DNA from: Amphiscolops sp. MND2022
Taxonomy: Eukaryota
DNA length: 64,000 nucleotides
Assembly: GCA_964187785.1 (NCBI GenBank)
Contig: OZ076409.1
Location: 75,704,001-75,768,000 of the forward strand
Reading direction: 5' to 3'
Part shown: positions 1 through 44,112 of the stretch, piece by piece
Numbering within the stretch: position 1 is the first letter of the stretch
Layout of the letters: each line of letters begins with the position of its first letter
The notes under the pieces: model-generated
Told to the model about the DNA's origin: nothing
The model's database searches: none
What the model saw: only the letters and a program-made list of their open reading frames with translations
Program-made: the position numbers and the translations under genes

Positions 1-736
1 TGGTATTTTATGGATAAAAGTACCTGGAAGGTGTTTTAAAGGCCTCCAGAAGTGAACATAGTCATGAAACTTTGTGGGGGGTAACGGTATATAGCACCGG
101 AAGTCCAAACCGTTAGTTACAGAATAGGTTTTTTGGTTTCAAAATGTCTTTAGGCGTAGTTTTGTGGGTTGAATCGTCATAATATCAACTAATACGGACT
201 TTTTTCGGAAATAAAATTTTTTCACATTAGTTTCAGGGACCTCCAATGTTTCAGTCAACATAACCGTTACATTTTGATAGCCTTTCAAGTTGGCCTGGTG
301 TCAACTTGGAAGGGCTATCCGTCTAAAATCGTTAATCAAGAGTGTTTTTGGGTAGGTATATGTTGCATTAGTACCAATTAGAGCTTCATCAACAGTTTGC
401 CAACGGCAAAAACGATGTCGTGATAATTCCGTTATAAGAATATTAATTAACAAATTGTTTCCAAAGTTGATTTTTTCCATTCGAAATGTGTCCTAATGCC
501 ACCAAATTGAATAAAATAATAAATGGTATTGACTAAACCTAAATAACATTGAAAAAGAAGCTCAACATTTTTAATAGGTCTCATTATGGAAGCTGAAACC
601 TCACGTTTTAACTTAATTAACGTCAACGCCACATACTTTACATCAACGCCCACCGTCTGTGGGCATGCCGAGGCATGCCCTTCGACGACGTATACCAATT
701 ACATATATATCCACACCCACCCGCGGTAGCAGCTAG
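1..736 (+). mobile_element. Partial (3') cassette with a GATAGCCTT-type palindrome, related in motifs to 19733-21124
   Basis: Its body does not match the 1.3 kb family. It has the palindrome GATAGCCTTTCAAGTTGG...CAACTTGGAAGGGCTATC (276-319), CCGGAAGT (97-104) and the standard 3' end (CAACGCC x2, GGGCATGCCGAGGCATGCCC, CTAG). Confidence 0.65.
661..680. promoter_or_regulatory. Conserved palindrome GGGCATGCCGAGGCATGCCC; 19/20 match to the p53-family response element (RRRCWWGYYY x2); 34 copies, one before each CTAG junction
   Basis: The half-sites GGGCATGCCG and AGGCATGCCC have zero spacer. The motif also forms a 9-bp inverted repeat. It is invariant apart from the AGGCATGCCGAGGCATGCCT variant. 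Function is not demonstrated. Confidence 0.55.
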
Positions 737-1154
737 GTGGCCGTGTCTTTTCGACGTGCTTTTGCATTGAGGAGTGGGTAGGGCCCCGCGACGACCTAGA
801 AAAATTGGATGCTCACCGAAACGTGCAGAATTCTACGAGATCTCATAGTTTGAGCCATACGATTTTGCTGAAATTTGGCATGTGGCCTGGAATTGGTGAG
901 TAGGTAAAACGTGTAGGAGGTGATTTTTCCCAAATTCCACTGTGAGACGAGATATGGGCAAATAACGGTCCCAAAAATGGCAAAAATGCACTTTTTTCAA
1001 CTTTGTCAGCCCATATCTCGTTCCCATGTGCCCGGAGCGGGACGCGTTAAGCTGATTATAAACTCTAGGGTGTTGAGGCTGTACGGGGAAGTCAGGCCCG
1101 TTCCGATCGGACTTGTAGTCTTGGAGAAATAACGGTATTTTTGGGGAACCTTTT

Positions 1155-1303
1155 CTAACGGTCCAGCTTATCTTTGCCATTTTTTCGAAAATGTACTCGC
1201 CTAAAGGCCTCCCCCTGGCCGAATTTACTCCCAGCAAAACCATTTGGCCCTAAATACGGAGTTTCAGCGTTCCAGCATTCCCGGGCGAAAAGTTGTGGGA
1301 CTT
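1155..1303 (+). repeat. ~150 bp highly conserved central block of the 1.3 kb family (example copy)
   Basis: CTAACGGTCCAGCTTATC...CATTTGGCCCTAAATACGGAGTTTCAGCGTTCCAGCATTCCCGGGCGAAAAGTTGTGGGACTT recurs in nearly every 1.3 kb unit while the flanks differ by subtype. Confidence 0.9.
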
Positions 1304-1706
1304 GGAAAATTTTCAAAAATTTTCAAAAAATTTTTTTTTCGTTTTCCGGGCCCCCAATGAAGGGGAAACGACCCCCAACCAGTATTTTGAGTGAATTCAT
1401 GTGGAAAGCCCATGTTTGGAGGAGAAAAATGCCGTTTAGCACATCTTTTTATCTTGACTCAACGTTGACTTATGACGTTTTGAATGTGATGTAAGGATGT
1501 AGGAGGCATGTGATAAGTTGATGTTTTGAGTCTTTATCTCATATGAAAGCGGTTGAGATGCAAGCTGTCCTGCTCAAAACGTCTTTCGTGGTAATTTTCC
1601 AGTGCACCAATACCCTTTGGTGTCATATAAACATACTTTTTGTCGATATATTAACAATTTTAATGTATTTATTCCAATTTTTATTATCTTATAACTCAAA
1701 ACAGTT

Positions 1707-1749
1707 GAGTACATTTCATCTCCCTTTCGGGGGAGATGAGAATGTACTC
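1707..1749. other. Long imperfect palindrome GAGTACATT(T/C)CATCTCCC-loop-GGGAGATGAGAATGTACTC (example; one per complete 1.3 kb unit, about 250-290 bp before the junction)
   Basis: Two ~18-bp arms with one unpaired base in the right arm. The arms are conserved and the loop varies between subtypes. Confidence 0.9.
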
Positions 1750-4700
1750 GCTAAAGACCTAGCGCCATGACCAAAAGTTTGAAACCCACGTTTTTTTATC
1801 TTCTTACAGACTTGTTTTTGTATTTTTTCGGAATTTTTTAAAAATTAAAATACTTGAAATATATTACTTGACTTTACTACTACAACCCACCTCCAACGAC
1901 AACGCCCCCCTGCTTGCATCAACGCCCGCCGTCCGTAGGCATGCCGAGGCATGCCTTTCGACGACGTATGCCAAATACCCAATGCCACGCTGTCATTATC
2001 GCTAGGTGGCCGTGTCTTTTCGACGTGCTTTTGCATCGAGGAGTGGGTAGGGCCCCGCGACGACCTAAAAGAATTGGATGCTCACCGAAACGTGCAGAAT
2101 TCTACGAGATCTCATAGTTTGAGCCATACGATTTTTCTGAAACTTGGCATGTGGCCTGGAATTGGTGAGTAGGTAAAACGTGTAGGAGGTAATTTTTCCC
2201 AAATTCCATTGTGAGAGGAGATATGGGCAAATAACGGACCCAAAAATGGGGAAAATGCACTTTTTTCAAGTTTGTCAGCCAATATCTCATTTCCACGTGC
2301 CCGTAGCGTTCCGCACGTGGACATCAATATTGCTCAGCGCTGTTGGAGGAGTGCGTGGACAAATTTTGGTTTAAATCGGACTTAAACTTGACGAGAAATT
2401 AACGGTTTTTTGGGCGTTTCCGGGGTAAATTTTTTAACGGTCCAGCTTATCTTTGCCATTTTTTCGAAAATGTACATGCCTAAAGGCCTCCCCCTGGCCG
2501 AATTTACTCCCAGCAAACCCATTTGGCCCTAAATACGGAGTTTCAGCGTTCCAGCATTCCGGGGCGGAAAGTTGTGGGACTTGGAAAAATTTCAAAATTT
2601 TTTCAAAAATTTTTTTCCCGTTTTCCGGGCCCCCAATGAAGGGGAACGACCCCCCAACCAGTATTTTGAGTGAATTCATGTGGAACGCCCATGTTTGGAG
2701 GAGAAAAATGCCGTTTAGCACATCTTTTTATCTTAACTTGACATTGACTTATGACGTTTTGAATGTGATGTTAGGATATATGAAGCATGTTAAAAGTTGA
2801 AGTTTTGAGTCTTTATCTCATCGGAAAACCATTGAGATACAAGCAGTTTTGCTAAAAACGATTTTCATTGTAGGTTAGCACAGTATTAGTACACTTTGAT
2901 GTCATTTGAGTATTTTTTTCTTCTATATAATAACTGTTTTTATGTATTTATTCCAATTTATCTCATCTTTTAACATCAAGCAGTTGAGTACATTTCATCT
3001 CCCTTTCGGGGGAGATGAGAATGTACTCGCTAAAAACCTAATGCTATGGCGCCAATGTTTGGATGAGAAGTTTTCTATGCTTTGAAAAAAGTTATTTTTA
3101 ATTACTTGATTTTTTAAAACAATAATTAACATGAAGTACATTACTTGCTCCTACTACTACCACCATACATCTCTAACGTCAACGCCCCCTGCTTGCATCA
3201 ACGCCCCATCGTCCGTGGGCATGCCGAGGCATGCCCTTCGACGACGTATGCCAAATGCCCAGTGCCACGCAGTCTTTCCCCGCTAGGTGGCCGTGTCTTT
3301 TCGACGTGCTTTTGCATTGAGGAGTGGGTAGGGCCCCGCGACGACCTAGAAGAATTGGATGCTCACCGAAACGTGCAGAATTCTACGAGATCTCATAGTT
3401 TGAGCCATACGATTTTTCTGAAATTTGGCATGTGGCCTGGAATTGGTGAGTAGGTAAAACGTGTAGGAGGTGATTTTTCCCAAATTCCACTGTGAGACGA
3501 GATATGGGCAAATAACGGTCCCAAAAATGGCAAAAATGCACTTTTTTCAACTTTGTCAGCCCATATCTCTTTTCCAGGTGCCCGTAGCGTTCCGCACGTG
3601 GACATCAATATTGCTCAGCGCTGTCGGAGGAGTGCGTGGACAAATTTTGGTTTAAATCGGACTTAAACTTGACGAGAAATTAACGGTTTTTTGGGCGTTT
3701 CCGGGGTAAATTTTTTAACGGTCCAGCTTATCTTTGCCATTTTTTCGAAACTGTACATGCCTAAAGGCCTCCCCCTGGCCGAATTTACTCCCAGCAAACC
3801 CATTTGGCCCTAAATACGGAGTTTCAGCGTTCCAGCATTCCGGGGCGGAAAGTTGTGGGACTTGGAAAAATTTCAAAATTTTTTCAAAAAATTTTTTTCC
3901 CGTTTTCCGGGCCCCCAATGAAGGGGAACGACCCCCCAACCAGTATTTTGAGTGAATTCATGTGGAACGCCCATGTTTGGCGGTGAAAAATGCCGTTTAG
4001 AACATCTTTTTATCTTAACTTGACATTGACTTATGACGTTTTGAATGTGATGTTAGGATATATGAAGCATGTTAAAAGTTGAAGTTTTGAGTCTTTATCT
4101 CATCGGAAAACCATTGAGATACAAGCATTTTTGCTAAAAACGATTTTCACTGTAGGTTAGCAGAGTATTAGTACACTTTGATGTCATTTGAGTATTTTTT
4201 TCTTCTATATAATAACTGTTTTTATGTATTTATTCCAATTTATCTCATCTTTTAACATCAAGCAGTTGAGTACATTTCATCTCCCTTTCGGGGGAGATGA
4301 GAATGTACTCGCTAAAAACTTAATGCTATGGCGCCAATGTTTGGATGGGAAGTTTTCTATGCTTTGAAAAAAGTTATTTTTAATTACTTGATTTTTTAAA
4401 ACAATAATTAACATGAAGTACATTACTTGCTCCTACTACTACCACCATACATCTCTAACGTCAACGCCCCCTGCTTGCATCAACGCCCCATCGTCCGTGG
4501 GCATGCCGAGGCATGCCCTTCGACGACGTATGCCAAATGCCCAGTGCCACGCAGTCTTTCCCCGCTAGGTGGCCGTGTCTTTTCGACGTGCTTTTGCATC
4601 GAGGAGTGGGTAGGGCCCCGCGACGACCTAGAAGAATTGGATGCTCACCGAAACGTGCAGAATTCTACGAGATCTCATAGTTTGAGCCATACGATTTTTC

Positions 4701-7700
4701 TGAAATTTGGCATGTGGCCTGGAATTGGTGAGTAGGTAAAACGTGTAGGAGGTAATTTTTCCCAAATTCCATTGTGAGAGGAGATATGGGCAAATAACGG
4801 ACCCAAAAATGGGGAAAATGCACTTTTTTCAAGTTTGTCAGCCAATATCTCATTTCCAGGTGCCCGTAGCGTTCCGCACGTGGACGTCAATATTGCTCAG
4901 CACTGTTAGAAGAGTGCGTGGACAAATTTTGGTTCAAATCGGACTGAAACTTGGCGAGAAATCAACGGTTTTTTGGGCAATTCCGGGGTAAATTTTTTAA
5001 CGGTCCAGCTTATCTTTGCCATTTTTTCGAAAATGTACTTGCCTAAAGGCCTCCCCTGGCCCAATTTCCTCCCAAAAAAACCATTTGGCCCTAAATACGA
5101 GGTTTCAGCGTTCCAGCATTTCCGGGCGAAAAGTTGTGGGACTTAGAATTTTTTCAAAAATTTTCAAATTTTTTTTTCGTTATTTGGGCCCCCAAAGTGG
5201 GGGAAAGGACCCCCCAACCATTAATTTGTGTGAATGCATGTGCAAAGCCCTTGTTTTGACGAGAAAAATACCGTTTCGAACATCTTTTTATTTTAACTTG
5301 GCGTTGACTTAGGACGTTTTGAATGTGATGTTAGGATGTGTGAGGCATGTGAAAAGTTGATGTTTTGAGTCTTTATCTCATGTGAAAGCGATTGAGATAC
5401 AAGCTGTTTCGCTCAAAACGGGTTTCATCGTAATTTCGCAGTGCATCATTGACCTTTGTTGTCTTTTGAAGAATTTTTTCTTCATATAACAACAATTTTG
5501 GTGTGTTTCTTCCAATTTTTCTCATCTTCTAATTTGAAACAGTTGAGTACATTTCATCTCCCTTTCGGGGGAGATGAGAATGTACTCGCTAAAAACCTAG
5601 TGCTTTTGCGCCGCAATGTTTGCAAAAGTTGTTATTATTGCTGTTCCATCAGCATTTTCTAACTGACTTTTTTAAAACTATCAATTAACTTGAAGTACAT
5701 TACTTGAACTTACTACTAATACCATACATCTCTAACGACAACGCCCCCCTGCTTGCATCAACGCCCACCGTCCGTGGGCATGCCGAGGCATGCCCTTCGA
5801 CGACGTATGCCAAATGCCCAGTGCCACGCAGTCATTCTCGCTAGGTGCCGGGATTTCCATTCGATAAGGAATTCTGCGCGTGTGGGTAGGGCCCCTGGCG
5901 CGCTCCTGTGTTTTCGGTTTTCCTACTCCTAAATAGACCCCCTGAATTCCGGGATCTCCTAAACTATCCATACGATTTGGCTGAAATTTGGCACACGTAC
6001 CCCCCTCGGCACGGTGAAGATGATTTCCTACTGACGTTTTTCCCGCTAAACATTTTTTGTTGACCAAAATAACGGTTTTTGGGGTAAAATTTTGAACTTT
6101 TTTTAAATTTCATCTTATATCTCGCCACGGGTACACGCTAGCGCTTCCAAACCTTGCTGACGAAAGTTTGCAAACTGTCTCAGGAATGCTGTGTGAAATT
6201 TTCAGCTCAATCGGACTCAAACTCGAGGAGATATAGCGTTTTCCCGGAGCGGGGGGGTTTCAATTTTCTAACGGTCCAGCTTATCTTTGCCATTTTTTCG
6301 AAAATGCACTCGCCTAAAGGCCTCCCCTGGCCGGTTTTATTCCCGACAAAACCATTTGGCCCTAAATACGGAGTTTCAGCGTTCCAGCATTCCCGGGCGA
6401 AAAGTTGTGGGACTTAGAAAAGTTCAAAAATTTTCAAAAAAAATTTTTTCCGTTATTTGGGCCCTCAAAGTGGGGGAAAAGACCCCCCAACCAGTAAAGC
6501 AAGTGAATGCATGTGGAAAGCCCTTGTTTAGACGAGAAAAATGCCGTCTAGAACGTCTTTTTATCTTAACTTGACATTGACTTTTGTCGTTTTGAAGGTG
6601 ACCGTTAGATACGGAAAATTGATGTTTTGAGTATTTATCCCATCTGAAAGCCATTGAGATACAACATGTTTTGCTCAAAACGTGTTTCATTGCAGTTTCG
6701 CTGTCCATTATCACCCTTTGGTGTCTTTTCACGTAATTTTCGTTTCTATAATAACAATTTTTTTGTGTATTTATTCATTTTATTCTCATCAAATAACTTG
6801 AAACAGTTGAGTACATTCCATCTCCCTTCCCGGGGGAGATGAGAATGTACTCGGTAAAGGTCAGGAACTACGGTCTATATCTTCCACAACACAAAAGGGA
6901 TTGCAAATGGTTTCAGTTTGTCGCAGAAAACTTCTTTTTGCCCTCTGTGACTCGACAAAATGAACGTTTCTTACTTACTTTGAAACTCAGCATACCACAA
7001 CTCATCTCTAACGTCAGCGCCCCCCTACTTGCATCAACGCCCACCGTCCGTGGGCATGCCGAGGCATGCCCTTCGACGACGTATACCAAGATATACCTGG
7101 AGCGCGGTAGCCGCTAGGTGCCGGGATTTCTATTCGATAAAGTATGTGGCGCGCCTTGGGTAGGGTCCCTTGCGCGCTCTTGGGTATGGTGTTCACCAGC
7201 TAGGAAACAGGGGTCGATTTTTCGGGATCTCCTAAACTAGCCACACGATTTGGCTGAAATTTGGCACACGTACTCCCCTCGGCACGGTGAAGATGATTTC
7301 CTACTGACGTTTTTCCCGCAAAATTTTTTTTGTTGTCCAAAATAACGGTTTTTGGGGTAAAATTTTGATTTTTTTTTAAATTTTATCTCATATCTCGCCA
7401 CCGGTTTACGCTAGCGCTTCGAAACCCTGCTAAAGAAAGTTTGCAAACTGTCTCAGGAATGCTGTGTGAAAATTTCAGCTCAATCGGACTTAAACTCGGG
7501 GAGATATAGCGTTTTTCCGGAGCGGGGGGGTTTCATTTTTCTAACGGTCCAGCTTATCTTTGCCATTTTTTCGAAAATGTACTCGCCTAAAGACCTCCCC
7601 TGGCCGGTTTTATTCCCAGCAAAACCATTTGGCCCTAAATACGGAGTTTCAGCGTTCCAGCATTCCCGGGCGAAAAGTTGTGGGACTTAGAAAATTTCAA

Positions 7701-8405
7701 AAATTTTCAAAAAAAATTTTTTCGGTTTTCCGCCCACCCCCCTAGGGGAAAAGACTCCCCAACCAGTAATTTGAGTGAATTCATGTGGAAAGGCCATGTT
7801 TAGAGGAGAAAAATGCCGTTTAGAACGTCTTTTTATCTTGGCTCAACGTTGACTTATGACGTTTTGAAGGTGATGTTTGGAGGTGTAAAGCACGTGAATA
7901 GTAAACGTTATGAGTATTTATCTGATCTGAAAGCCATTGAGATGCAATATGGTTTGCTCAAAACGTAATTCATGGCAGTTTGGCAATCAATCAACACCCT
8001 TTGTTGTCGTTTGACATACTTTTTTGTTGTTATAATAAAAAATTTTGTGTATTTATTCATTTTTTTCTCATCAAATAACTTGAAACAGTTGAGTACATTC
8101 CATCGCCCCCTTCCGGGGGAGATGAGAATGTACTCGCAAAAAGCACCGAACTACGGCCCTTACCTTCCCGAGCTACGCAGTATAAGGATTACATATTGGT
8201 TCCGACATTTTCATAGAGTTAAATCTTGGTAATCTGTCTGGATATGCAGAAAAACCAGCACGTGCTTTTTTATACCAAGTTGCTTACAACGACAATTATT
8301 TTATATCAACGCCCCCATATTTATCAACGCCCCCCGTCCGTGGGCATGCCGAGGCATGCCCTTCGACGACGTGCACCAAGATATACCCCAAGCGCGTTAG
8401 CCTAG

Positions 8406-9691
8406 GTGGCCGGAAATTTTTTTTTCATCAAAATCTTTGCCATTGGGGGAGGGGCCCCGGATGGCCAGTAGTACGGGATAGCTTCCTACCAAATCCAGGC
8501 GGAAAAAACGTGATTTTGGAAACTAGCCGTCAGAATTTGCTCAAATTTTGCATACGGCTTCCTATAACAATCCTAAGAACTAATCCCTACTGGCATTTTG
8601 CCCGAAAAACGCAAAAAGTTGGTCAAAATCTTAGTTTTTTGGTCAAAAAATGGCGTTTTTTCGAAAAAAAAATTTTTCAGAGACAATTACTCGTAACTGG
8701 TTCACCCAGCGCAAAAACGCCTAGCTGATTTATTGTTGGGCACTTCATGAGGAGTACGTATACAAATTTTCGTCTAGATCGGAAAAAAAATGACTAAGTA
8801 TTAGCCGGAATTCGGACGCATTTTTTCGCAAATTTTTGAAAACCTAGTCTATCTCTGCCGTTTTTTGCCCAGATTTTTTTCCAGGTCCTCTCCTAAAGGC
8901 CTCCCCTGGCCGGTTTACTTCCCAGAAAAACCATTTGGCCCTAAATACGGAGTTTCAGCGTTCTAGCATTCCCGGGCGAAAAGATGTGGGACTTAGAAAA
9001 AATTCAAAATTTTTCAAAAAATTTTTTTTTCGTTTTCCGGCCCCCCAATGAAGGGGAACGACCCCCCAACGAGGATTTTTGGTGAATTCACGTGGAAAGG
9101 CCTTGTTTTGTGGAGCAAATTGCCGTTTAGAGCGACTTTTTATCTTAACTTGACGTTGACGTCTGTCGTTTTGAATTTGATATTAGTATGTGTTGAGCAT
9201 GTGAAAAGTTGATGATTTCAGTTGTTCTCTCGTGTTCAAGCCATTGAGATACAAGCGGTAGTGATCAAAATGTGATTTATCGCAATTTGGTGGTGCTTTT
9301 GGTGTATTTTGATTCTTTTAAATAAAAAGTTGTTCTTTATATATTTGGTGTATTGATTCAAATGAACAAGAAACAGTTGAGTACATTTCATCTCCCCCCT
9401 TGTGGGGGAGATGAGGATGTACCCGCTAAATGACACGCACAATGGCCCAATTTTATTTTTATGCGACGTTTTCTAGGCTTTTGCGCAAGCCCACTAAAAT
9501 TTAGACTGGTTTCCTTTTCTTTTACTCCAAAATTTTCCGTACTAACCACCTTACGCACCATCAGCTCATCGTAACATCTGTAACGCCAACGCCACATACT
9601 CTCACTAACGCCCACCGTCTGTGGGCATGCCGAGGCATGCCCTTCGACGACGTATGCCAAATAGCGCCACAGGGCGCCCAATTTTGTCTAG
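8406..9691 (+). mobile_element. Distinct subtype unit (starts GTGGCCGGAAATTTT); near-identical dispersed copies at 21125-22411 and 29181-30465
   Basis: The three non-adjacent copies match along their full length (1285-1287 bp) and have different neighbours. Confidence 0.85.
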
Positions 9692-26260: not shown

Positions 26261-26574
26261 GTGCCGGTGTATTTTTACACAATGGGGGATGTTGCGCGTG
26301 TGGGGAGGGTCCCTGACGCGCTTCCGTGGTTTCGGGTCTTCTAACCTATGATAGCGTGACACCTGACTTCGATCTCGTAAACTAGCCGTACGATTTGGCT
26401 GAAATTTGGCACACGTACCCCCCTCGGCACGGTGAAGATGATTTCCTACTGACGTTTTTCCCGCTAAACATTTTTTGTTGACCAAAATAACGGTTTTTGG
26501 GGTAAAATTTTCAACTTTTTTTAAATTTCATCTTATATCTCGCCACGGGTTCACGCTAGCGCTTCCAAACCTTG
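26261..26574 (+). mobile_element. 3'-truncated unit (314 bp) ending at a cryptic CTTG and fused to the exact start of the next unit
   Basis: Intact sisters read CCAAACCTTG-CTGACGAAAG (about 6147, 23986, 32051). This copy reads CCAAACCTTG-GTGCCCGGATTTCTATTC, which is the start sequence seen at 17147 and 34311. Confidence 0.9.
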
Positions 26575-32500: not shown

Positions 32501-35500
32501 GGTGACCGTTAGATACGGAAAATTGATGTTTTGAGTATTTATCCCATCTGAAAGCCATTGAGATACAACATGTTTTGCTCAAAACGTGTTTCATTGCAGT
32601 TTCGCTGTCCATTATCACCCTTTGGTGTCTTTTCACGTAATTTTCGTTTCTATAATAACAATTTTTTTGTGTATTTATTCATTTTTTTCTCATCAAATAA
32701 CTTGAAACAGTTGAGTACATTCCATCTCCCTTCCCGGGGGAGATGAGAATGTACTCGCTAAAGGTCAGGAACTACGGACTATATCTTCCACAACACAAAA
32801 GGGATTGCAAATGGTTTCAGTTTGTCGCAGAAAACTTCTTTTTGCCCTCTGTGACTCGACAAAATGAACGTTTCTTACTTACTTTGAAACTCAGCATACC
32901 ACAACTCATCTCTAACGTCAGCGCCCCCCTACTTGCATCAACGCCCACCGTCCGTGGGCATGCCGAGGCATGCCCTTCGACGACGTATACCAAGATATAC
33001 CTGGAGCGCGGTAGCAGCTAGGTGCCGGGATTTCTATTCGATAAAGTATGTGGCGCGCCTTGGGTAGGGTCCCTTGCGCGCTCTTGGGTATGGTGTTCAC
33101 CAGCTAGGAAATAGGGGTCGATTTTTCGGGATCTCCTAAACTAGCCACACGATTTGGCTGAAATTTGGCACACGTACTCCCCTCGGCACGGTGAAGATGA
33201 TTTCCTACTGACGTTTTTCCCGCAAATTTTTTTTTGTTGTCCAAAATAACGGTTTTTGGGGTAAAATTTTGAATTTTTTTAAAATTTTATCTTATATCTC
33301 GCCACGGGTTTACGCTAGCGCTTCAAAACCCTGCTAAAGAAAGCTTGCAAACTGTCTCAGGAATGCGGTGTGAAATTTTCAGCTCAATCGGACTTAAACT
33401 CAGGGAGATATAGCGTTTTTCCGGAGCGGGGGGGTTTCATTTTTCTAACGGTCCAGCTTATCTTAGCCATTTTTTCGAAAATGTACTCGCCTAAAGACCT
33501 CCCCTGGCCGGTTTTATTCCCAGCAAAACCATTTGGCCCTAAATACGGAGTTTCAGCGTTCCAGCATTCCCGGGCGAAAAGTTGTGGGACTTAGAAAAAT
33601 TCAAAAAATTTCAAAAAATTTTTTTTCCGTTATTTGGGCCCCCAAAGTGGGGGAAAAGACCCCCCAACCAGTAAGGCAAGTGAATGCATGTGCAAAGCCC
33701 TTGTTTAGAGGAGAAAAATGCCGTTTAGAACGTCTTTTTATCTTGGCTCAACGTTGACTTATGACGTTTTGAAGGTGATGTTTGGAAGGTGTGAAGCACG
33801 TGAAAAGTAAACGTTATGAGTATTTATCTGATCTGAAAGCCATTGAGATGCAATCTGTTTTGCTCAAAACGTAATTCATATCCGTTTGGTAGTCAATCAA
33901 CACCCTTTGTTGTCATTTGACATCTTTTTTTGTTGTTATAATAAAAAATTTTGTGTATTTATTCATTTTTTTCTCATCAAATAACTTGAAACAGTTGAGT
34001 ACATTCCATCCCCCCTTCACGGGGGAGATGAGAATGTACTCGCAAAAAGCCCCGAACTACGGCCCTTACCTTCCTGAGCTACGCAGTATAAGGATTACAT
34101 ATTGGTTCCGACATTTTGATAGAGTTATATCTTGGTAATCTGTCTGGATATGCAGAAAAATCAGCACGTGCCTTTTAATACCAAGTTGCTCACAACGACA
34201 TTTATTTTATATCAACGCCCCCATATTTATCAACGCCCCCCGTCCGTGGGCATGCCGAGGCATGCCCTTCGACGACGTATACCAAGATATGTTCGAGCGC
34301 GTTAGCCTAGGTGCCCGGATTTCTATTCATTAAAGTATGTTGCGCGTGTGGGTAGGGCCCCTGGCGCGCTCTTGTGTCCCTGTTCTCATAACTGCAATTT
34401 CCGGCAGCATTCTGAGCGATTTTCTAAACTATCCATACGATTCGGCTGAAATTTGGCATGTGAGTTCCTATGACAGTTCTAAGAAACATTTCCTACTGGC
34501 GTTTTGCCCGGAAAATTTTTTTTGTTGACTTATAACGGTTTTTTTGGCCAAAAAATGCGATTTTTTCAAAAAAAAATTTTTTCGGAGCCCATATCTTTTT
34601 TCAGGGTGCCCGGAGCGGGACGCGTTAAACTGATTATAAACTCTACGGTTCATGGGCTTTACGGAGAACCTAGGCTCGTTTCGATCGGACAAATAGTCTT
34701 GGAGATATAACGGCATTTTTTGGGAATTTTTTGGAAATTTTTCTAACGGTCCAGCTTATCTTTGCCATTTTTTCGAAAATGTACTCGCCTAAAGGCCTCC
34801 CCTGGCCGGTTTTAATCCCAGCAAAACCATTTGGCCCTAAATACGGAGTTTCAGCGTTCCAGCATTCCCGGGCGAAAAGTTGTGGGACTTAGAAAAATTT
34901 CAAAATTTTTCAAAAATTTTTTTTCCGTTTTCCGCCCTCCCCCCCGAGGGGAAAAGACCCCCCAACCAGTAATTTGAGTGAATTCATGTGGAAAGGCCAT
35001 GTTTAGAGAAGAAAAATGCCGTTTAGATCGTCTTTTTATTTTAACCTGTCGTTGACTTATGTTGTTTTGAAGGTGATGTTTGGATGTGTGAAGCATGTGA
35101 AAAGGTAATTTATTGTGTCTTTAGCTCTTCTAAAAGTCATTGAGATACACGGTGTGTGACTCAGAACGTGTTTAATTCTAATTTAGCAATGCATCAACAC
35201 TTTTTTGTGTCTTTTGACTCTGTTTTAAAAAATTTTTCCGACTAAAATCAAAAATTATTTATAATTATTCACATTTTTTTTCTGATCTCATGACTCGAAA
35301 CAGTTGAGTACATTCCATCTCCCTTCACGGGGGAGATGAGAATGTACTCTTTAGAGACCAGGTACTACAGTACTTACCTTCCCCGAGCAACGCCCCATAA
35401 AAATTGCGTTTTGATCCAGATATTTTGACATAATTTTATCTTTGTAATTTGACTGGAAATGAAGAAAATGCCGCACGTGCTCTTTTATATCAAGTATCTT

Positions 35501-38500
35501 AACAACGCCATCTCTTTTACGTCAACGCCCCATAGTTCACATCAACGCCCACCGTCCGTGGGCATGCCGAGGCATGCCCTTCGACGACGTATACCAAGAT
35601 ATACTCCCGAGCGCGGTAGCCGCTAGGTGCCGGGATTTCTATTCGATAAAGTATGTGGCGCGTGTGGGTAGGGTCCCTGGCGCGCTCTTGGGTATGGTGT
35701 TCACCAGCTAGGAAATAGGGGTCGATTTTTCGGGATCTCCTAAACTAGCCACACGATTTGGCTGAAATTTGGCACACGTACTCCCCTCGGCACGGTGAAG
35801 ATGATTTCCTACTGACGTTTTTCCCGCAAAATTTTTTTTGTTGTCCAAAATAACGGTTTTTGGGGTAAAATTTTGAATTTTTTTTAAATTTTATCTTATA
35901 TCTCGCCACCGGTTTACGCTAGCGCTTCAAAACCCTGCTAAAGAAAGCTTGCAAACTGTCTCAGGAATGCTGTGTGAAAATTTCAGCTCAATCGGACTTA
36001 AACTCAGGGAGATATAGCGTTTTTCCGGAGCGGGGGGGTTTCATTTTTCTAACGGTCCAGCTTATCTTAGCCATTTTTTCGAAAATGTACTCGCCTAAAG
36101 ACCTCCCCTGGCCGGTTTTATTCCCAGCAAAACCATTTGGCCCTAAATACGGAGTTTCAGCGTTCCAGCATTCCCGGGCGAAAAGTTGTGGGACTTAGAA
36201 AATTTCAAAAATTTTCAAAAAATTTTTTTTCCGTTTTCCGCCCTCCCCCCCTAGGGGAAAAGACCCCCCAACCAGTAATTTGAGTGAATTCATGTGGAAA
36301 GGCCATGTTTAGAGGAGAAAAATCCCGTTTAAATTGTCTTTTTATCTTTATTCAACGTTGACTTATGACGTTTTGAAGGTGATGTTTGGAGGTGTGAAGC
36401 ACGTGAAAAGTAAACGTTATGAGTATTTATCTGATCTGAAAGCCATTGAGATGCAACCTGTTTTGCTCAAAACGTAATTCATATCAGTTTGGTAGTCAAT
36501 CAACACCCTTTGTTGTCGTTTGACATACTTTTTTGTTGTTATAATAAAAAATTTTGTGTATTTATTCATTTTTTTCTCATCAAATAACTTGAAACAGTTG
36601 AGTACATTCCATCCCCCCCCATCCGGGGGAGATGAGAATGTACTCGCAAAAAGCACCGAACTACGGCCCTTACCTTCCCGAGCTACGCAGTATAAGGATT
36701 ACATATTGGTTCCGACATTTTCATAGAGTAACATCTTGGTAATCTGTCTGGATATGCAGAAAAATCAGCACGTGCCTTTTAATACCAAGTTGCTTACAAC
36801 GACAATTATTTTATATCAACGCCCCCATATTTATCAACGCCCCCCGTCCGTGGGCATGCCGAGGCATGCCCTTCGACGACGTATACCAAGATATGTTCGA
36901 GCGCGTTAGCCTAGGTGGCCGGGAATTTTTTTTTCCACATAAATCTTTGCCACTGGGGTAGGGGCCCCGAGTGGCTGTTGTTCGGTTTACTTCCCATAGG
37001 ATTTGCCCGCTGCGGAGACGATCTCAGAAACTAGCCATACGATTTGGCTCAAACTTGGCACAGAGCCTCCTTGAAAGATTATAAGAACTTTTTCCTAGTG
37101 GCGTTTTTCGATTGAAATATTTTATGTTGACCAAAATTGCGTTCAAAGTGTCCATTGTTGCGTAATTTTTGTCTTTTTCAACTTTGATGGTCCATAACTT
37201 TTTTTGAGATGCCCGGAGCGGGTCGCACGTGGTTAACAATATTGCTGGGCACTTCAAGAGCTGTCCGTAGACAAATTTTCGTCCAGATTGGAAAAAAATT
37301 GATGGAGTAATATCCCCAAATCGCACACATTTTGTCGAATTTTTTCGAAACCCTAGTCTATCTCTGCCGTTTTTTGCCCAGATTTTTTTCCAGGACCTCT
37401 CCTAAAGGCCTCCCCTGGCCGGTTTACCTCCCAGAAAAACTATTTGGCCCTAAATACGGAGTTTCAGCATTCCAGTATTCCCCGGGTAAAAGATAAATGA
37501 CTTAGAATTTTTTTCGAAAAATTTTCAAAATTTTTTTTTCAACTTCAGGCCTCCCAAAGTCAGGAAACTTCCACACAACTAGTATTGCAAGTGAATGCAT
37601 GTGGAAAGTGCTTGAAGAGACAAGAAAAATGAGCTATTATACGACTCTGTAGCTTAACCTGACGTTGACTTATGACAAATTTAGTAAGAGCTTCCTATGT
37701 GAGAAAAAATTTCAAAAAGTGAAAATTGAATCTAAGTCTCTTCCAAAACTCATCGGAATACGTTCAATTCACACCAGAGCGGTTCAATTCCAGTTGTATA
37801 GTGCAGCAACACCATTCAAGGTCTTTTGGTCCATTTTTATAACTTTTGACACCGTCTTGTTCATCCGATAGCACAAGACAGTTGAGTACATTCCATCTCC
37901 CCCTTGTGGGGGAGATGAGAATGTACTCGCTAAAAGTCAGGTACTATAGCGCCCATTTTGTTTTATTCGACGCTAGTGATGCTATTGCACACGAATACAA
38001 TAGTTTTGTAAAATCATGTTTGACATGATGAATCTTACTTTACCTTTAGTTTACGTTTACCTACTACTACAACATCGCAGCCCTAACGTCAACGCCACAC
38101 ACTCTCACTAACGCCCACCGTCCGTGGGCATGCCGAGGCATGCCCTTCGACGACGTATGCCAAATAGCGCCACAGGGCGCAAACTTGTCCGCTAGGTGCC
38201 GGGATTTCTATTCGTTCGAGGAAGTGGCGCGTGTGGGTAGGGCCCCTGGCGCGCTCTTGTGTTTCGGGTTCTCCTACTCCTAATTCACACCCCAGATTTC
38301 TCGGATCTCGTAAACTATCCATACGATTTGGCTGAAATTTGGCACACAGCTCAGTTGGAACATTGTAAGAACAAATCCCTACTGACGTTTTGCCCGCTAA
38401 ACATTTTTTGTTGGTCAAAAATGCGATTTTCCGACAAAATTTTTGACTTTTTTTTCTTTTTCATTTCATATCTCGCCACAGGGTCACGCTAGCGCTTTGC

Positions 38501-41500
38501 AACTTATGATCCTTTTGTGTAGGGCGTTGTCTGTAGAACACGTATGCCAAATTTGGTGGCGATCGGACTTAAACTCAGCGAGATAGAGCCATTTTTTAGG
38601 TGCATTTTTTGTCATTTTTTGCATTTGCCGATTTATCTCTGCCATTTTTTGCCCAAATTTTTTTCGAGACACTCTCCTAAAGACCTCCCCTGGCCGTTTT
38701 ACCTCCCAGCAAAACCATTTGGCCCTAAATACGAAGTTTCAGCATTCTAGCATTCTCGGGCGAAAAGTTGTGGGACTTAGAAACATTTTTTGGAAACGCA
38801 AAATGTGTAAAGTCAACTTCAGGACTCCCAAAGTCAAGGAACTTTCACACAACTAGTATTGCAAGTGAATGCATGTGGAAAGTACTCGTATAGACGAGGA
38901 AAATGAGCTATAGAACGTCTCTGTATCTTAATCTGACGTTGACTTATGATGTTTTGAATGTGGGCTTGCTTAAGGGTAAAAAATTTAATAAATGAAAATG
39001 GAAACAGTCTCGTCTAAAACTCATATGAACATGTTCAATCCACCCCAGAGTGGTTTAATTCCAGTTGTCTAGTCCAGCAAAACCATTCAAGGGCATGCAA
39101 CTCACTTTTATAAATTTTGAAATTGTCTTATCCATCCGAGAGCACAAAACATTTGAGTACATTCCATCTCCCTCCTGGGGGAGATGAGAATGTACTCGCT
39201 AAAGTCCAAGTACTACAGGCCACAATTGTTTTAATGCGACGCTCTATATGCTAGTGCATATTGCTACCTAACGTTTGTCTTAATTTTTCCTCTGACTCGA
39301 CATATGCTGTACCTTTGGTCCAAACATTACCATTATAAACAGCACTAACGTCAACGCCACATACTCTTATCAACGCCCACCGTCCGTAGGCATGCCGAGG
39401 CATGCCTTTCGACGACGTATGCCAAATACCTTAAAACCGACGCGCACTCTCCCGCTAGGTGCCGGGATTTCCATTCGATAAGGTATTCTGCGCGTGTGGG
39501 TAGGGCCCCTGGCGCGCTCCTGTGTTTTCGGTTTTCCTACTCCAAATTCACACCCCAGTTATCTCCGATCTCGTAAACTATCCATACGATTTGGCTGAAA
39601 TTTGGCACACAGCTTCGTTGGAACATTGTAAGAACAAATCCCTACTGACGTTTTGCCCGCTAAACATTTTTTGTTGGTCAAAAATGCGATTTTCCGACAA
39701 AATTTTTGACTTTTTTTTCTTTTTCAACTCATATCTCGCCACAGGGTCACGCTAGCGCATTGCAACCTATGATCCTTTTTTGTAGGGCATTGCATGTAGA
39801 ACACGTATGCCAATTTTGGTGGCGATAGGACTTAAACTCAGGGAGATATAACGATTTTTTAGGTGCATTTTTTGACATTTTTTGCATTTGCTGATTTATC
39901 TTTGCCGTTTTTTGCCCAGATTTTTTTTGAGACACTCTCCTAAAGACCTCCCCTGGCCAGTTTACCTCCCAGCAAAACCATTTGGCCCTAAATACGAAGT
40001 TTCAGCGTTCTAGCAATCCCGGGCGAAAAATTATGGGACTTAGAAAATTTTTTTGAAAACGCAAAATGTGTAAAGTCAACTTCAGGCCTCCCAAAGTCAA
40101 GGAACTTTCACACAACTAGGATTGCAAGTGGATGCATGTGGAAAGTACTGGGATAGACGAGAAAAATGAGCTATAGAACGACTCTGTAGCATAACTTGAC
40201 GTTGACTTATGATGTTTTGAATGTGTGCTTGCTAAGGGGTCCGAAATTGAAAATTTTTAAAGAAAATTAATATCGTCAAAAATTCATCGAAATGCCTGCA
40301 ATATACAGTAGAGCGTGTTCAATTGTAGCTGACTAATGCATCAACGCAACTCAAGGTCTTTTAACTCAGTTTCAAATTTTTTTACACTGTATTATCCATC
40401 CGAGAGATCGAAACAGTTGAGTACATTCCATCTCCCTCCCGGGGGAGATGAGAATGTACTCGCTAAAGTCCAGATACCACAGCCCATAATTGTTTCTCTG
40501 CAACGCCATCTATGCTACTGCACATAACTACTAATCTTAGGACTGAATTTTGCCTTCGCTTTGACTTGACATATGCTGAAGGTTTGATCCTTTCACACAT
40601 CAATATTACCTGAACAAAACAACCCTAACATCAACGCCCCACACTCACATCAACGCCCACCGTCCGTGGGCATGCCGAGGCATGCCCTTCGACGACGTAT
40701 ACCAAGATATACATAAGCGCGGTAGCCGCTAGGTGCCGGGATTTCTATTCGATAAAGTATGTGGCGCGCCTTGGGTAGGGTCCCTTGCGCGCTCTTGGGT
40801 ATGGTGTTCACCAGCTAGGAAACAGGGGTCGATTTTTCGGGATCTCCTAAACTAGCCACACGATTTGGCTGAAATTTGGCACACGTACTCCCCTCGGCAC
40901 GGTGAAGATGATTTCCTACTGACGTTTTTCCCGCAAAATTTTTTTTGTTGTCCAAAATAACGGTTTTTGGGGTAAAATTTTGAATTTTTTTTAAATTTTA
41001 TCTTATATCTCGCCACCGGTTTACGCTAGCGCTTCAAAACCCTGCTAAAGAAAGCTTGCAAACTGTCTCAGGAATGCGGTGTTAAATTTTCAGCTCAATC
41101 GGACTTAAACTCAGAGAGATATAGCGTTTTTCCGGAGCGGGGGGGTTTCATTTTTCTAACGGTCCAGCTTATCTTTGCCATTTTTTCGAAAATGCACTCG
41201 CCTAAAGGCCTCCCCTGGCCGGTTTTATTCCCAGCAAAACCATATGGCCCTAAATACGGAGTTTCAGCGTTCCAGCATTCCCGGGCGAAAAGTTGTGGGA
41301 CTTGGAAAATTTCAAAAATTTTCAAAAAATTTTTTTTCCGTTATTTGGGCCCCCAAAGTGGGGGAAAAGACCCCGCAACCAGTAAAGCAAGTGAATGCAT
41401 GTGGAAAGCCCTTAGTTAGATGAGAAAAATGGCGTTTAGAACGTCTTTTTATCTTGGCTCAACGTTGTCTAATGACGTTTTGAAGGTGACCGTTAGATAC

Positions 41501-44112
41501 GGAAAATTGATGTTTTGAGTCTTTATCCCATCTGAAAGCCACTGAGATACAACATGTTTTGCTCAAAACGTATTTCATTGCAGTTTCGCTGTCCATTAAC
41601 ACCCTTTGGTGTCTTTTGACGTATTTTTCTTTTCTATAATAACATTTTTTCTGTGTATTTATTCATTTGTTTTTCATCAAATAACTTGAAACAGTTGAGT
41701 ACATTCCATCTCCCTTCCCGGGGGAGATGAGAATGTACTCGCTAAAGGCCGCGAACTACGGTCTATATCTTCCCCAAAACAAAAGAGATTGAAAATTGTT
41801 TCATTTTGTGGAAAAAGTTCTTCTTTTTGTACACTGTGACTCGACAAAGTGAACGTTTCTTACCTATTTTGAAACTTCCCTCACCAAAAACCATCTCTAA
41901 CGTCAGCGCCCCCCTACTTGCATCAACGCCCCCCGTCCGTGGGCATGCCGAGGCATGCCCTTCGACGACGTATACCAAGATATACCTGGAGCGCGGTAGC
42001 CGCTAGGTGCCGGGATTTCCATTCGATAAGGAATTCTGCGCGTGTGGGTAGGGCCCCTGGCGCGCTCCTGTGTTTTCGGTTTTCCTACTCCAAATTCACA
42101 CCCCAGTTATCTCCGATCTCGTAAACTATCCATACGATTTGGCTGAAATTTGGCACACGTACCCCCCTCGGCACGGTGAAGATGATTTCCTACTGACGTT
42201 TTTCCCGCTAAACATTTTTTGTTGACCAAAATAACGGTTTTTGGGGTAAAATTTTCAACTTTTTTTAAATTTTATCTTATATCTCGCCACGGGTACACGC
42301 TAGCGCTTCCAAACCTTGCTGACGAAAGTTTGCAAACTGTCTCAGGAATGCTGTGTGAAATTTTCGGCTCAATCGGACTTAAACTCGAGGAGATATAGCG
42401 TTTTTCCGGAGCGGGGGGGTTTCATTTTTCTAACGGTCCAGCTTATCTTTGCCATTTTTTCGAAAATGCACTCGCCTAAAGGCCTCCCCTGGCCGGTTTT
42501 ATTCCCAGCAAAACCATTTGGCCCTAAATACGGAGTTTCAGCGTTCCAGCATTCCCGGGCGAAAAGTTGTGGGACTTAGAAAATTTCAAAAATTTTCAAA
42601 AATTTTTTTCCGTTATTTGGGCCCCCAAAGTGGGGGAAAAGACCCCCCAACCAGTAAAGCAAGTGAATGCATGTGCAAAGCCCTTGTTTAGAGGAGAAAA
42701 ATGCCGTTTAGAACGTCTTTTTATCTTGGCTCAACGTTGACTTATGACGTTTTGAAGGTGATGTTTGGAGGTGTAAATCACGTGAATAGTAAACGTTATG
42801 AGTATTTATCTGATCTGAAAGCCATTGAGATGCAATATGGTTTGCTCAAAACGTAATTCATGGCAGTTTGGCAATCAATCAACACCCTTTGTTGTCGTTT
42901 GACATACTTTTTTGTTGTTATAATAAAAATTTTGTGTATTTGTTCATTTTTTTCTCATCAAATAACTTGAAACAGTTGAGTACATTCCATCCCCCCTTCC
43001 GGGGGAGATGAGAATGTACTCGCAAAAAGCAGCGAATTACGGCCCTTACCTTTCCGAGCTACGCAGTATAAGGATTACATATTGGTTCCGACATTTTCAT
43101 AGAGTTAAATCTTGGTAATCTGTCTGGATATGCAGAAAAATCAGCACGTGCCTTTTAATACCAAGTTGCTCACAACGACAATTATTTTATATCAACGCCC
43201 CCATATTTATCAACGCCCCCCGTCCGTGGGCATGCCGAGGCATGCCCTTCGACGACGTATACCAAGATATACATCGAGCGCGTTAGCCTAGGTGGTCCGG
43301 GGCTGTTTTTGCCCCACAAGAACTTTGCGAGGCCTGGGGAGGGTCCCGGAGCCGAGCGCAATATCCAAAATACATCACTAGTCCACCGGGTCCGATTTCG
43401 GCGATTTTGGAATCTAACCATACGATTTTAATAAAACTTTGCACACATACCTAAAATCAAATTATAAGAACTTTTTTCCCCTGACGTATCATCATTGAAA
43501 CATTTGTTGAAAAGTTATGTGCAAATGATCGTGTGTTTTGGTCATTTTTCGCATTTTTCACACAGTAGCTCCACACTTTACGCTATGCATTTGGCCCATT
43601 TTTTGCGTGCGCGGCATAAATGATGTCATGTTTACACATGCCAAAAACTATTTCTCAATTCGCAACAGGAGTGGAGATATGGCGGATAATAGTGGCGGAA
43701 AATTTCATGATTACGAAAATTTGCACATATTTGCCCAACATTTGTTTGAAAAATGAGAAAAATTAAAAAGTCCGCGGATTGCGTTGAAACTTGGCACACA
43801 GGTAGTTGAACAAATTCTAAGAACTTTTTCTCTCTGACGTTTTTCCGAAAAATTGCATCTTCAACCTATATTTGCAATATTTCGGATTTTTTGATTCAAG
43901 GTGATTTATCACTCACATATTCAAAGTCCATTTTCAGCATGAAGCAACGCAGATACCGGCAATGTGCACATATTGCAAAATCATCAACGGCCAATGGTCT
44001 ACCGAACGGTCCAAAAAAATTTTGCCCTCGGGCCCAATGAAAGTGGCCAAAAGTGCCAAAAGCTTTTTTCCAACAGTATCACCATTACAAAATTGATGAT
44101 TTGATCAGGAGG

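Follow-up and report, generated by a model that had tools for sequence, protein, structure and literature searches.

A p53-like 20-mer inside a conserved end hairpin of stacked, gene-less units in Amphiscolops sp. MND2022

Organisation of the array

The window, by which we mean the whole 64,000-nt stretch of DNA analysed here, is occupied by a head-to-tail array of gene-less units (Table 1). All 40 matches to the common left end (40/40) lie on the + strand and none on the minus strand. The 38 complete units are 1036-4898 bp long, and each of them starts with GTG (38/38) and ends with CTRG, in the form CTAG in 33/38 and CTGG in 5/38. No ORF longer than 145 aa with an ATG, GTG, or TTG start is present within the 64-kb window, and Pfam at the curated cut-off gave 0 matches in 49 frames, which were chosen from the 67 stop-to-stop frames and 3 ORFs of the window. 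No autonomous partner or enzyme gene was found within the window, and no tRNA genes. A bacterial promoter scan of the window stayed at chance level and is irrelevant here.

Table 1. Features of the array, with positions in the window
Feature	Position	Strand	Remarks
Head-to-tail array of gene-less units	1..64000	+	same orientation throughout; both window ends open
Unit with a different body, right part	1..736	+	right-end block retained; homology in last ~120 nt only
Complete units, n=33	737..43291	+	32 of the 1.28-kb family and one 1392-bp unit
1392-bp unit	19733..21124	+	body largely unrelated (42-45% in alignment); left end and right-end block kept
3'-truncated unit, 314 bp	26261..26574	+	ends at an internal CTTG, joined exactly to the GTG where a unit from another subfamily starts
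4.9-kb unit	43292..48189	+	common left end, CACTGG end, internal 363-bp repeats; no p53-like block
Two 1.04-kb units	48190-49225, 49226-50273	+	common left end, CACTGG end; no p53-like block
Further 4.9-kb copies	50274-55168, 55169-60066, 60067-end	+	
CTAG/GTG junction, example	14812..14818	+	unit type changes here; 34 in window, 733 to 43288
Left-end hairpin, example	13557..13586	+	37-45 nt after junction; core GGG-(T/G)AGGG(T/C/G)-CC(C/T), outer stem variable
Right-end block, example, ~48 nt	14736..14783	+	CAACGCC, CGTC-Y-GT, 20-mer, TTCGACGACGT; imperfect hairpin with the 20-mer as core
Internal long hairpin, example	1707..1749	+	bulged bases; 1.28-kb family, ~300 nt before junction; 32 copies
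Perfect palindrome, 18-bp arms, in 4.9-kb unit	47149..47187		related palindromes at 276-319 and 20772-20814
p53-like 20-mer, n=34	661..43247	+	31 GGGCATGCCGAGGCATGCCC (G..C), 3 AGGCATGCCGAGGCATGCCT (A..T)
20-mer starts 1-17	661, 1937, 3217, 4499, 5776, 7052, 8342, 9623, 10904, 12174, 13457, 14753, 15794, 17083, 18397, 19661, 21053	+	
20-mer starts 18-34	22343, 23612, 24923, 26196, 27826, 29118, 30396, 31677, 32956, 34248, 35560, 36852, 38126, 39388, 40668, 41941, 43228	+	
Paired variant G1>A / C20>T, copy 1	1937..1956	+	
Paired variant G1>A / C20>T, copy 2	12174..12193	+	subfamily as copy 1
Paired variant G1>A / C20>T, copy 3	39388..39407	+	another subfamily
Weaker internal p53-like site, 4.9-kb unit	43624..43643	+	CATG-N6-CATG; logKd -6.77, attained by 5% of shuffles

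The 1.28-kb family is diverse, with pairwise identities of 57-99%, and the 33 complete units that lie between 737 and 43291 form 14 clusters at 90% whose members follow one another in shuffled order. Between families the bodies are unrelated and the ends alone are held in common. The initial annotation had spoken of foreign units, which holds for most of the body of the 1392-bp unit; however, ~130 bp near its left end is ~70% identical to the main family, so this unit is not wholly foreign. The array had also been given a range to 43250. The motif copies do end there, 

Junctions between units number 40, with 34 CTAG/GTG, 5 CTGG/GTG, and 1 CTTG/GTG. The p53-like 20-mer precedes every CTAG junction, as first annotated, with 34 copies for 34 occurrences of CTAGGTG and no other CTAGGTG in the window. 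Since it is missing at the five CTGG/GTG junctions and the single CTTG/GTG junction, it lies ahead of 34/40 junctions overall. Unrelated families meet at a 7-nt core. Conservation is poor to the left of CTAG and the last 45 nt of the units are variable, while the left-end hairpin is common to all families, those without the p53-like motif included.

A motif-pattern scan of metagenomes returned 1 match, locus L001, and scans of prokaryote genomes and of phages returned 0 each. The body pieces of L001 are 67-88% identical to window units, its right-end block is intact, and its junction is CGAG/GTG, which is not CTRR. Among the scans of viral contigs all but one returned 0; the two matches of that one, L002 and L003, had neither BLAST similarity to the window nor a significant profile match and were therefore taken as chance.

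The 20-mer and its hairpin

The description of 34 near-perfect p53-family elements at ~1.3 kb was borne out: 34 copies lie on the + strand at a median spacing of 1281 bp (range 1041-1630 bp, with 30/33 intervals at 1260-1320), and shuffled sequence contained no motif match (0/100 shuffles). Every copy matches the p53 consensus at 19/20 positions, with two RRRCWWGYYY half-sites, zero spacer, and CATG cores; the exception is position 10, a G instead of Y. Both the G..C and the A..T variants still fit the consensus, again as annotated. Scoring against a p53 matrix, here one measured for human p53 (PMC2275157, Table 2), gave a predicted logKd of -7.45 for 31 copies and -7.35 for 3 copies. On the same scale the best possible site has a logKd of -7.61 and the p21 site -7.11, which makes the 20-mer a near-optimal, top-tier site in terms of predicted human p53 affinity. 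Because this score is near-optimal, is attained by 0/500 unit shuffles, and is equalled by only ~1-2 per 100,000 random perfect 9-bp hairpins, binding of the 20-mer by a p53-family protein in vitro is likely.

The 20-mer is the centre of a longer right-end block, present in 34 copies at E<1e-3 with none past 43300. The p53 footprint covers less than half the length of the conserved block, and 43-56 nt separate the hairpin core from the unit end. Conservation was counted over 15 representatives, namely the 14 window clusters and L001. To the left of the 20-mer, 27/27 columns are polymorphic at -45..-19 and 8/18 at -18..-1; inside it the count is 2/20, followed by 0/11 at +1..+11 and 17/19 at +12..+30. 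The earlier statement that the motif is far more conserved than its flanks is thus true of the wider flanks and false for the 11-nt 3' flank, which is more invariant than the 20-mer itself.

Selection for p53 binding would be expected to fix the cores and leave positions 1-3, 8-13, and 18-20 and the flanks free, a pattern that is not followed among these few lineages. Of the 12 single changes that are p53-neutral (cost <=0.05 logKd), 10 never occur among the 15 representatives, and the sole neutral changes seen there are those at positions 1 and 20, always together and with pairing kept. The non-consensus G10 is invariant in the same representatives, and affinity-raising changes at positions 10 and 11 are not seen. 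A second constraint could mask the p53-tolerance pattern of variation.

All 225/225 cells of a 15-pair stem can pair, with 13 pairs invariant, one changing from G-C to A-T and one from C-G to T-G, on a stem model drawn from the same sequences on which pairing was scored. Both strands of the block fold about equally well, and the left-end and internal hairpins vary like the right-end stem. On a tree of the flanks the paired variant requires 3 changes, at least 2 of which are forced by well-supported branches. Covariation of the stem is limited to a single pair and no more than three events, and gene conversion or template switching could produce it. Genuine spacer-less CATG/CATG p53 sites likewise tend to be full palindromes, according to PMC1888811.

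Since the 20-mer is central to a longer conserved hairpin at one unit end, it is probably a signal for an enzyme that moves the units. The reading that we favour with moderate confidence, from sequence comparison, is that a self-stacking non-autonomous mobile element, whose movement probably depends on an HUH rolling-circle enzyme, carries a ~48-nt end signal with the 20-mer at its core, and that the match to p53 is incidental; p53-family proteins may bind the site without being the cause of its conservation. The p53-family cluster of the initial annotation survives as a near-optimal predicted site. That p53 binding caused the conservation does not fit the longer block, the frozen neutral positions, the pairing-keeping changes, and the 6 motif-less junctions. 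A structural hairpin role, offered there as equally possible, accounts for the data better than p53 binding does.

The strong form of that earlier proposal, a dense p53-family cluster that the host maintains for damage or germline signalling, either as an enhancer or as a sink for protein, appears extremely unlikely. Predicted top-tier sites do number 34 over 43 kb, and transposons can bring stress-factor sites to hosts (PMC6927752, PMC3485254). However, one site per unit at a fixed distance from the end is a consequence of unit anatomy, their density results incidentally from stacking, no site below a logKd of -6.9 lies in the final 20 kb of the array, and no target gene was found in the window.

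A dual use, in which selection has acted on the end of a mobile element for binding by the p53/p63/p73 family as well, is possible though unlikely. Lying 43-56 nt upstream of the next unit start in an array or circle, the site could drive germline or DNA-damage transcription or mobilisation, or host silencing. The predicted logKd values (-7.45/-7.35) and the chance of ~1e-5 under a hairpin-only null are better than symmetry alone explains, and an incidental match therefore requires either a true coincidence or selection arising from a scan-wide search. Both variants stay within the consensus, and so does a single C18>T read of the 20-mer in run X1 (depth 2.1; 31 short pieces over 20/30 bins, too sparse for counting variants), which may be a sequencing error. 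The specificity of the p53 family is reported as conserved to Drosophila (PMC2807882), and a weaker CATG-N6-CATG site occurs inside units of the families without the block. Against this, the weaker site is at chance level and its 4.9-kb and 1.04-kb copies are homologous, 6/40 junctions have no site, no gene to regulate was found in the window, and the frozen p53-neutral positions, invariant G10, and invariant 3' flank need another cause regardless. There is a precedent in zebrafish EnSpm-N6_DR, a DNA transposon that is non-autonomous and is described as containing functional p53 sites (PMC3485254), which together with ERV LTRs resembles the window units in being multicopy with an embedded near-consensus p53 site. 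The EnSpm-N6_DR site has been shown to be functional, however, and its copies have TIRs and are dispersed near genes, whereas the window site is predicted and lies in a longer frozen end hairpin of stacked copies.

Formation and history of the array

The 45 nt 3' of the block are linked to the upstream body (correlation 0.74 versus 0.22-0.29 across the junction), and segment-distance correlations in general are 0.40-0.88 within units and 0.13-0.29 across the junction. The closest relative of a unit is adjacent in just 3/33 units, and 14/32 neighbour pairs are <70% identical. Neighbours are slightly more alike than expected by chance (0.73 versus 0.69, p=0.008), so local duplication also acts. 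Internal mosaics are found too, for example in unit 23681-24989, which changes subfamily near offset 450. The exact truncation at CTTG is a single event; the other large rearrangement, a 247-bp deletion in 14816-15857, lies away from the unit ends. A lox-like crossover within the palindrome is ruled out because the 45 nt downstream travel with the upstream body. For the same reason a k-mer-switching assembly artefact at the block is unlikely, and a piece from run X1, which may be the source sample, crosses a mixed junction (13440-13590) with 1 difference.

The mosaics, the slight excess of similarity between neighbours, and the finding that the flanks around the paired variant are 95% identical to those of a copy lacking it, as a short conversion tract leaves, would all suit a complex satellite made of dead elements, in which gene conversion or unequal exchange keeps the block uniform and no present function is needed. 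Exchange inside the block, however, would unlink the next 45 nt from the upstream body, and this link stays. Unrelated families are joined at the 7-nt core, L001 has an intact block beside diverged body pieces, and one truncated unit abuts the next unit start exactly. We therefore consider a satellite very improbable.

Movement via RNA is another alternative, and in our judgement a quite improbable one. Here the block would be a 3' RNA structure, either recognised by an RT or self-cleaving, and the mixed array would result from template jumping between full-length RNAs, the units being non-autonomous partners to a retroelement of the Penelope-like or tyrosine-recombinase kind. Where just one side of a pair has changed, in any of the three hairpins, the + strand shows C-G to T-G or T-A to T-G, which is compatible with G-U wobble, and non-autonomous Penelope-like elements are reported to build head-to-tail arrays (PMC8557442). 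Such arrays are similar to ours, as are those of non-LTR retrozymes, in being gene-less and in having a conserved structure at the junction. Penelope-like copies, however, are typically 5'-truncated and partly inverted, as described in PMC8557442, whereas all left ends in the window (40/40) begin at the same GTG with 0 5' truncations and no inverted copies, in units of 1.0-4.9 kb and mixed families. A simple pattern for the hammerhead core matched 0 times on both strands, Rfam gave 0 matches at the gathering score and, with E relaxed to 10 over 5.6 kb, nothing beyond chance matches, and the units have neither an A-rich tail nor an internal complement of the junction. For a DIRS-like complement, matches of 6-9 nt, scored without a control, were judged to be chance. 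Parses as HDV-like and pistol-like ribozymes, made by eye, were rejected because they gave pairing that was inconsistent across families.

Relation to known elements and a proposed end signal

The unit ends do not conform to Helitron1, Helitron2/HINE, Crypton, or Penelope elements. Helitrons have a CTRR 3' end, and tandem copies and 3'-truncated inner copies have been reported for them (PMC5148889, PMC7492417). Like Helitron1, the window units have no TIR, no coding capacity, a CTRR-type 3' end (38/38), and a GC-rich subterminal hairpin, and like its tandem arrays they form head-to-tail copies with one 3'-truncated inner copy. Helitron1 starts with TC, however, in contrast to GTG in the window (38/38), and its hairpin is 10-12 nt from the 3' end instead of 43-56 nt. 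Helitron1 also inserts between A and T without duplication and relies on a RepHel partner, of which the 49 Pfam-tested frames of the window gave no trace at the curated cut-off. The window units also have a second conserved hairpin near the start, their arrays mix unrelated families, and L001 ends with CGAG.

The HINEs of the Helitron2/Helentron type (DINE-1, Cg_HINE, FoHeli) are similar in having hairpins near both ends, with the left one ~40 nt in and not terminal, as well as in the CC-GA(A)-GG hairpin cores (CC-GA-GG in the window), internal tandem repeats as in the 4.9-kb unit, ends common to bodies <70% identical, and, for one window unit, two left ends. FoHeli1/2 are grouped with Helitron2, and their 5' hairpins have a CC-GAA-GG core (PMC5148889, PMC7492417). 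The window units differ in lacking the 8-15 bp asymmetric TIR or subTIR pair; within a unit, the two ends match in inverted orientation over at most 5-7 nt, with a mean of 5.89 compared with 5.85 for the ends of other units. They also differ in having CTRG/GTG junctions where HINEs have a T start and a T-rich or TT target, and in containing no real GTCY microsatellite, only one GTCY-like word. A nested HINE parse across the junction was rejected, the putative 3' subTIR being missing in several subfamilies and in L001.

Cryptons are comparable in having no TIR, a short junction core in common, and a crossover confined to a few bases. They differ in their 11-13 bp inverted arms around a 6-8 bp spacer, since the window units have no conserved arms and are variable left of CTAG, and no Crypton-type tyrosine recombinase was found in the window. 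Terminal repeats have been reported as absent from animal Cryptons. As for a Crypton-type 4-6 bp direct repeat, the G-GTG core is present, but any tandem-array junction resembles a direct repeat. Replitrons, described from plants, algae, and protists, have short direct terminal repeats and a Rep HUH partner (PMC10288648); no such partner was found in the window.

For the end signal of a mobile element, which remains our preferred reading, we suggest the following mechanism. An enzyme encoded elsewhere in the genome would recognise the unit ends as single-stranded hairpins, with the right-end block acting as a subterminal stop or recognition hairpin. It would copy the unit and attach the GTG at the unit's start to the 3' side of a CT-N-G tetranucleotide. 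Because every unit ends with CTRG, each junction would be rebuilt as a target by the unit's own end, so that units would pile up, and homologous exchange in conserved internal blocks may then create further mosaics. Given this reading, the enzyme is probably an HUH rolling-circle transposase (Helitron-like); a tyrosine recombinase is a considerably weaker candidate, and some other enzyme is unlikely. A bolder proposal would have the units represent an undescribed group of eukaryotic elements, with cassette-like stacking of several gene-less families at a self-renewing CT-N-G/GTG and an end signal that doubles as a selected, near-optimal p53-family site shortly before the start of the following unit, so that the p53/p63 pathway of the host, in its DNA-damage or germline role, would turn copying or transcription on and off. 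We regard this as distinctly unlikely.

If the preferred reading is true, the array would represent a non-autonomous element whose ends fit none of the tested superfamily definitions, and which targets its own junction and thereby builds mixed-family arrays. Its short fixed ends would provide a handle for finding the enzyme, which may be site-specific. The array is also a warning that what looks like an almost perfect transcription-factor site may, when it lies in a repeat, be an end hairpin. Should the site in addition be bound and used, it would physically and directly connect p53-family signalling with a working transposon end.

Architecture of the array

Throughout its 64 kb the window is a single array of units that lack genes and all point the same way. 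Profile searching with the unit start gave 40 matches, every one on the + strand, and the 38 complete units all start with GTG and end with CTAG (33 units) or CTGG (5 units). No ORF started by ATG, GTG or TTG is over 145 aa in the window, no match to Pfam at the curated cut-off was obtained among the 49 frames tried, and Rfam and tRNA scans of the window returned no match. CpG is not depleted in the window (1.02 and 0.89). The absence of genes points to a eukaryotic host, tentatively an animal given that some internal words resemble invertebrate HINE repeats.

From 737 to 43291, the 1.28-kb family stands together with one 1392-bp unit whose body is mostly unrelated to it. These units form 14 clusters at 90% and their order is shuffled, with the closest relative adjoining in 3/33 units and 14 of the 32 neighbour pairs under 70% identical. 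Past 43291 are 4.9-kb and 1.04-kb units, which start as the other families do, end in CACTGG and lack the conserved right-end block that contains the p53-like motif. The 4.9-kb subtypes share about 96% identity within and 87-89% between; these units carry internal 363-bp repeats and, about 1 kb before their end, a perfect palindrome with 18-bp arms. The two 1.04-kb units are nearly identical over their first ~610 bp and largely divergent in the remainder, and TTTGCC(T/A)CCACTGG is the terminus of both despite the divergent right parts.

Features of the array (window coordinates)
Feature	Position	Strand	Remarks
1.28-kb family	737 to 43291	+	32 units, 57-99% identical
4.9-kb units	43292-48189, 50274-55168, 55169-60066, 60067-64000		two alternating subtypes
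1.04-kb units	48190-49225 and 49226-50273		left/right mosaic
3'-truncated unit	26261-26574	+	cut after 314 bp at internal CTTG
Unit with internal deletion	14816-15857		247 bp lost; not at an end
A..T motif variant (G1>A, C20>T)	1937, 12174, 39388	+	3/34 copies
Weaker CATG-N6-CATG p53-like sites	43624-43643 and homologous sites; 48524-48543		in families without the block
Related long palindromes	276-319, 20772-20814, 47147-47190		three otherwise unrelated bodies

The p53-like motif and its hairpin

A pattern scan of the window found the motif 34 times, always on the + strand, within 661-43247, with 0 expected by chance; the count and positions of the 34 near-perfect p53-like sites claimed in the initial annotation are thereby confirmed, with corrections. 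The G..C form, GGGCATGCCGAGGCATGCCC, makes up 31/34 copies. Motif-to-motif spacing is 1041-1630 bp (median 1281), and CTAG|GTG lies 43-56 nt past the motif end at every one of the 34 copies. The PWM scoring proposed at the outset, run with a measured human p53 matrix (PMC2275157, Table 2), predicts a logKd of -7.45 for the G..C form and -7.35 for the A..T form, near the best possible site (-7.61); p21 scores -7.11. The 34 copies are the only sites under -6.9 in the window. The weaker CATG-N6-CATG sites adjoin GC(A/G)TGCG(A/C)GGCAT, a word like the centre of the main motif. The motif score was reached in 0/500 shuffles of a unit, and for perfect 9-bp hairpins of random sequence, closed by a 2-nt loop, the probability of -7.45 or better is 0.7-2.2e-5; the likeness to p53 sites is thus strong and goes beyond what symmetry would give.

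Conservation was assessed in 15 representatives, of which 14 stand for clusters of the upstream 255 nt and the other is L001, a homologous metagenome contig. Polymorphic columns number 27/27 at -45 to -19, 8/18 at -18 to -1, 2/20 in the motif, 0/11 at +1 to +11 and 17/19 at +12 to +30. The conserved entity is thus a block of ~48 nt. It folds into a hairpin with imperfect pairing, centred on the 20-mer (z -2.0 to -3.2, strands about equal). In a 15-pair stem model, drawn from the very sequences it was tested on, pairing holds in 225/225 cells and 13 pairs are invariant; of the two varying pairs, one goes from G-C to A-T in 3 rows and the other from C-G to T-G in 3 rows. On a flank tree of 33 rows, with two foreign units left out and L001 as a long branch, the paired change takes 3 steps, at least 2 of them forced. 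Twelve single substitutions are p53-neutral (cost at most 0.05 logKd), and these are observed only at positions 1 and 20, where changes always co-occur; affinity-raising changes at positions 10 and 11 are absent among the 15 representatives. One short contig from a single sequencing run (depth 2.1) has C18>T, which is p53-neutral, leaves the stem with a G-T wobble pair and is possibly an error.

The earlier p53-family reading of the motif is partly supported: the predicted affinity is strong, but the conservation pattern demands a second, stricter cause. The covariation is not to be over-read, since it concerns one pair, the arms can be coupled by conversion or template switching, and spacer-less CATG/CATG p53 sites are usually full palindromes (PMC1888811).

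CAACGCC occurs twice in direct repeat 16-25 nt upstream of the block in most units (e.g. 3179-3208) and is possibly a protein-binding site. A left-end hairpin 37-45 nt past the unit start is common to all families. Units of the 1.28-kb family have a long bulged hairpin ~300 nt before their end and the other families a different long palindrome; the related long palindromes sit at differing distances from the right end. Most 1.28-kb subfamilies have two copies of AATGTACTCGC(C)TAAAG in each unit (e.g. 1190-1209, 1741-1756), one of which is the long hairpin's 3' arm; several 1.28-kb subfamilies and L001 lack the word. GCCCTTC, spanning the motif 3' arm and flank (e.g. 14768-14775), is complementary to the left-end hairpin loop G(T/G)AGGG(T/C) (e.g. 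13568-13574), whose variants are mostly wobble-compatible with it, so that the two may pair across the junction. The families from 43292 to the window end lack the partner.

Unit boundaries and a candidate mechanism

Between neighbouring 100-column segments, distance matrices correlate at 0.40-0.88 within units versus 0.13-0.29 across the junction, where the correlation nevertheless exceeds zero (p at most 0.015). Since the 45 nt from block to junction are linked to the upstream body, unit type switches at CTAG|GTG and not within the palindrome. Two foreign-body units have homology to the 1.28-kb family limited to their last ~110-130 nt. Mosaics also occur within units, at conserved blocks, and adjacent units resemble each other a little more than chance would give (p=0.008); both would suit an inert satellite, which we consider decidedly unlikely.

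The 314-bp truncated unit runs precisely into the GTG that opens a unit of another subfamily, giving one unit with two left ends, and its relatives read on as CTG beyond the truncation point. CT-N-G occurs at 1.2% of positions. This single event points to a start set by an enzyme and to a preference for CT-N-G. The 247-bp deletion has a short filler duplication at its break.

L001 (1172 bp) comprises a homologous unit end and the next unit start. Its body pieces are 67-88% identical to window units, its block is intact in the A..T variant, its internal hairpin shows compensatory change, and its junction is CGAG|GTG. The next-unit start (795-1097) is 72.6% identical over 307 nt to the start of the 1392-bp unit. 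Scans of viral contigs, prokaryote genomes and phages found no real relative, and L001 was the sole metagenome relative.

The array has fixed ends, one orientation, unit-wise mixing and structure-preserving variation, and the motif is missing at 6/40 junctions. HUH rolling-circle transposition fits best: Helitron-type elements are reported to end in CTRR, to have subterminal hairpins and orientation-specific targets, to form tandem and 3'-truncated copies, to possess multiple 5' ends and to contain hairpins with a CC-GAA-GG core (PMC5148889, PMC3627910, PMC4067079, PMC7492417, PMC10288648). An enzyme encoded elsewhere would recognise the end hairpins, attach the GTG start of a unit 3' of CT-N-G and stop at CTRG, recreating the target so that units stack. 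The density of sites in the array follows from stacking, and a host p53 cluster is very improbable. The units appear to work like Helitron-type elements, yet we do not class them there because they have no 5' TC or T, no asymmetric TIR and no TT target, and differ in the distance of the hairpin from the end. Crypton-type recombination fits less well, the units having no arms at the crossover (criterion from PMC3212892), and so does a Penelope-like or retrozyme origin (PMC8557442, 10.64898/2026.07.22.740005). Units have neither hammerheads nor 5' truncation, and an RNA-level element is accordingly unlikely.

Significance of the p53 match

A host p53-family protein, if there is one, would likely bind the motif in vitro, since human and fly members of the family share their specificity (PMC2807882). 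Precedents are p53 sites within a non-autonomous DNA transposon (PMC3485254) and stress-factor sites in Helitrons (PMC6927752). The idea that the mobile-element end is also used as a p53-family site is kept in play by the hairpin-only null of ~1e-5 and by the location of the motif, shortly before the next unit begins. We nonetheless find it rather doubtful, as the conservation pattern needs a second, stricter cause anyway, the weaker CATG-N6-CATG site of the families without the block scores only -6.77, a value that 5% of shuffles attain, and one such match would not be unexpected when many repeat families, hairpins and well-known motifs are scanned. An end signal of a mobile element with an incidental p53 match is, by a modest measure, the probable reading. 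A full-text literature search found no description of the element or of such mixed arrays. Since Repbase and Dfam may already hold these families, novelty is provisional for what we interpret as a non-autonomous transposon array with unusual ends.
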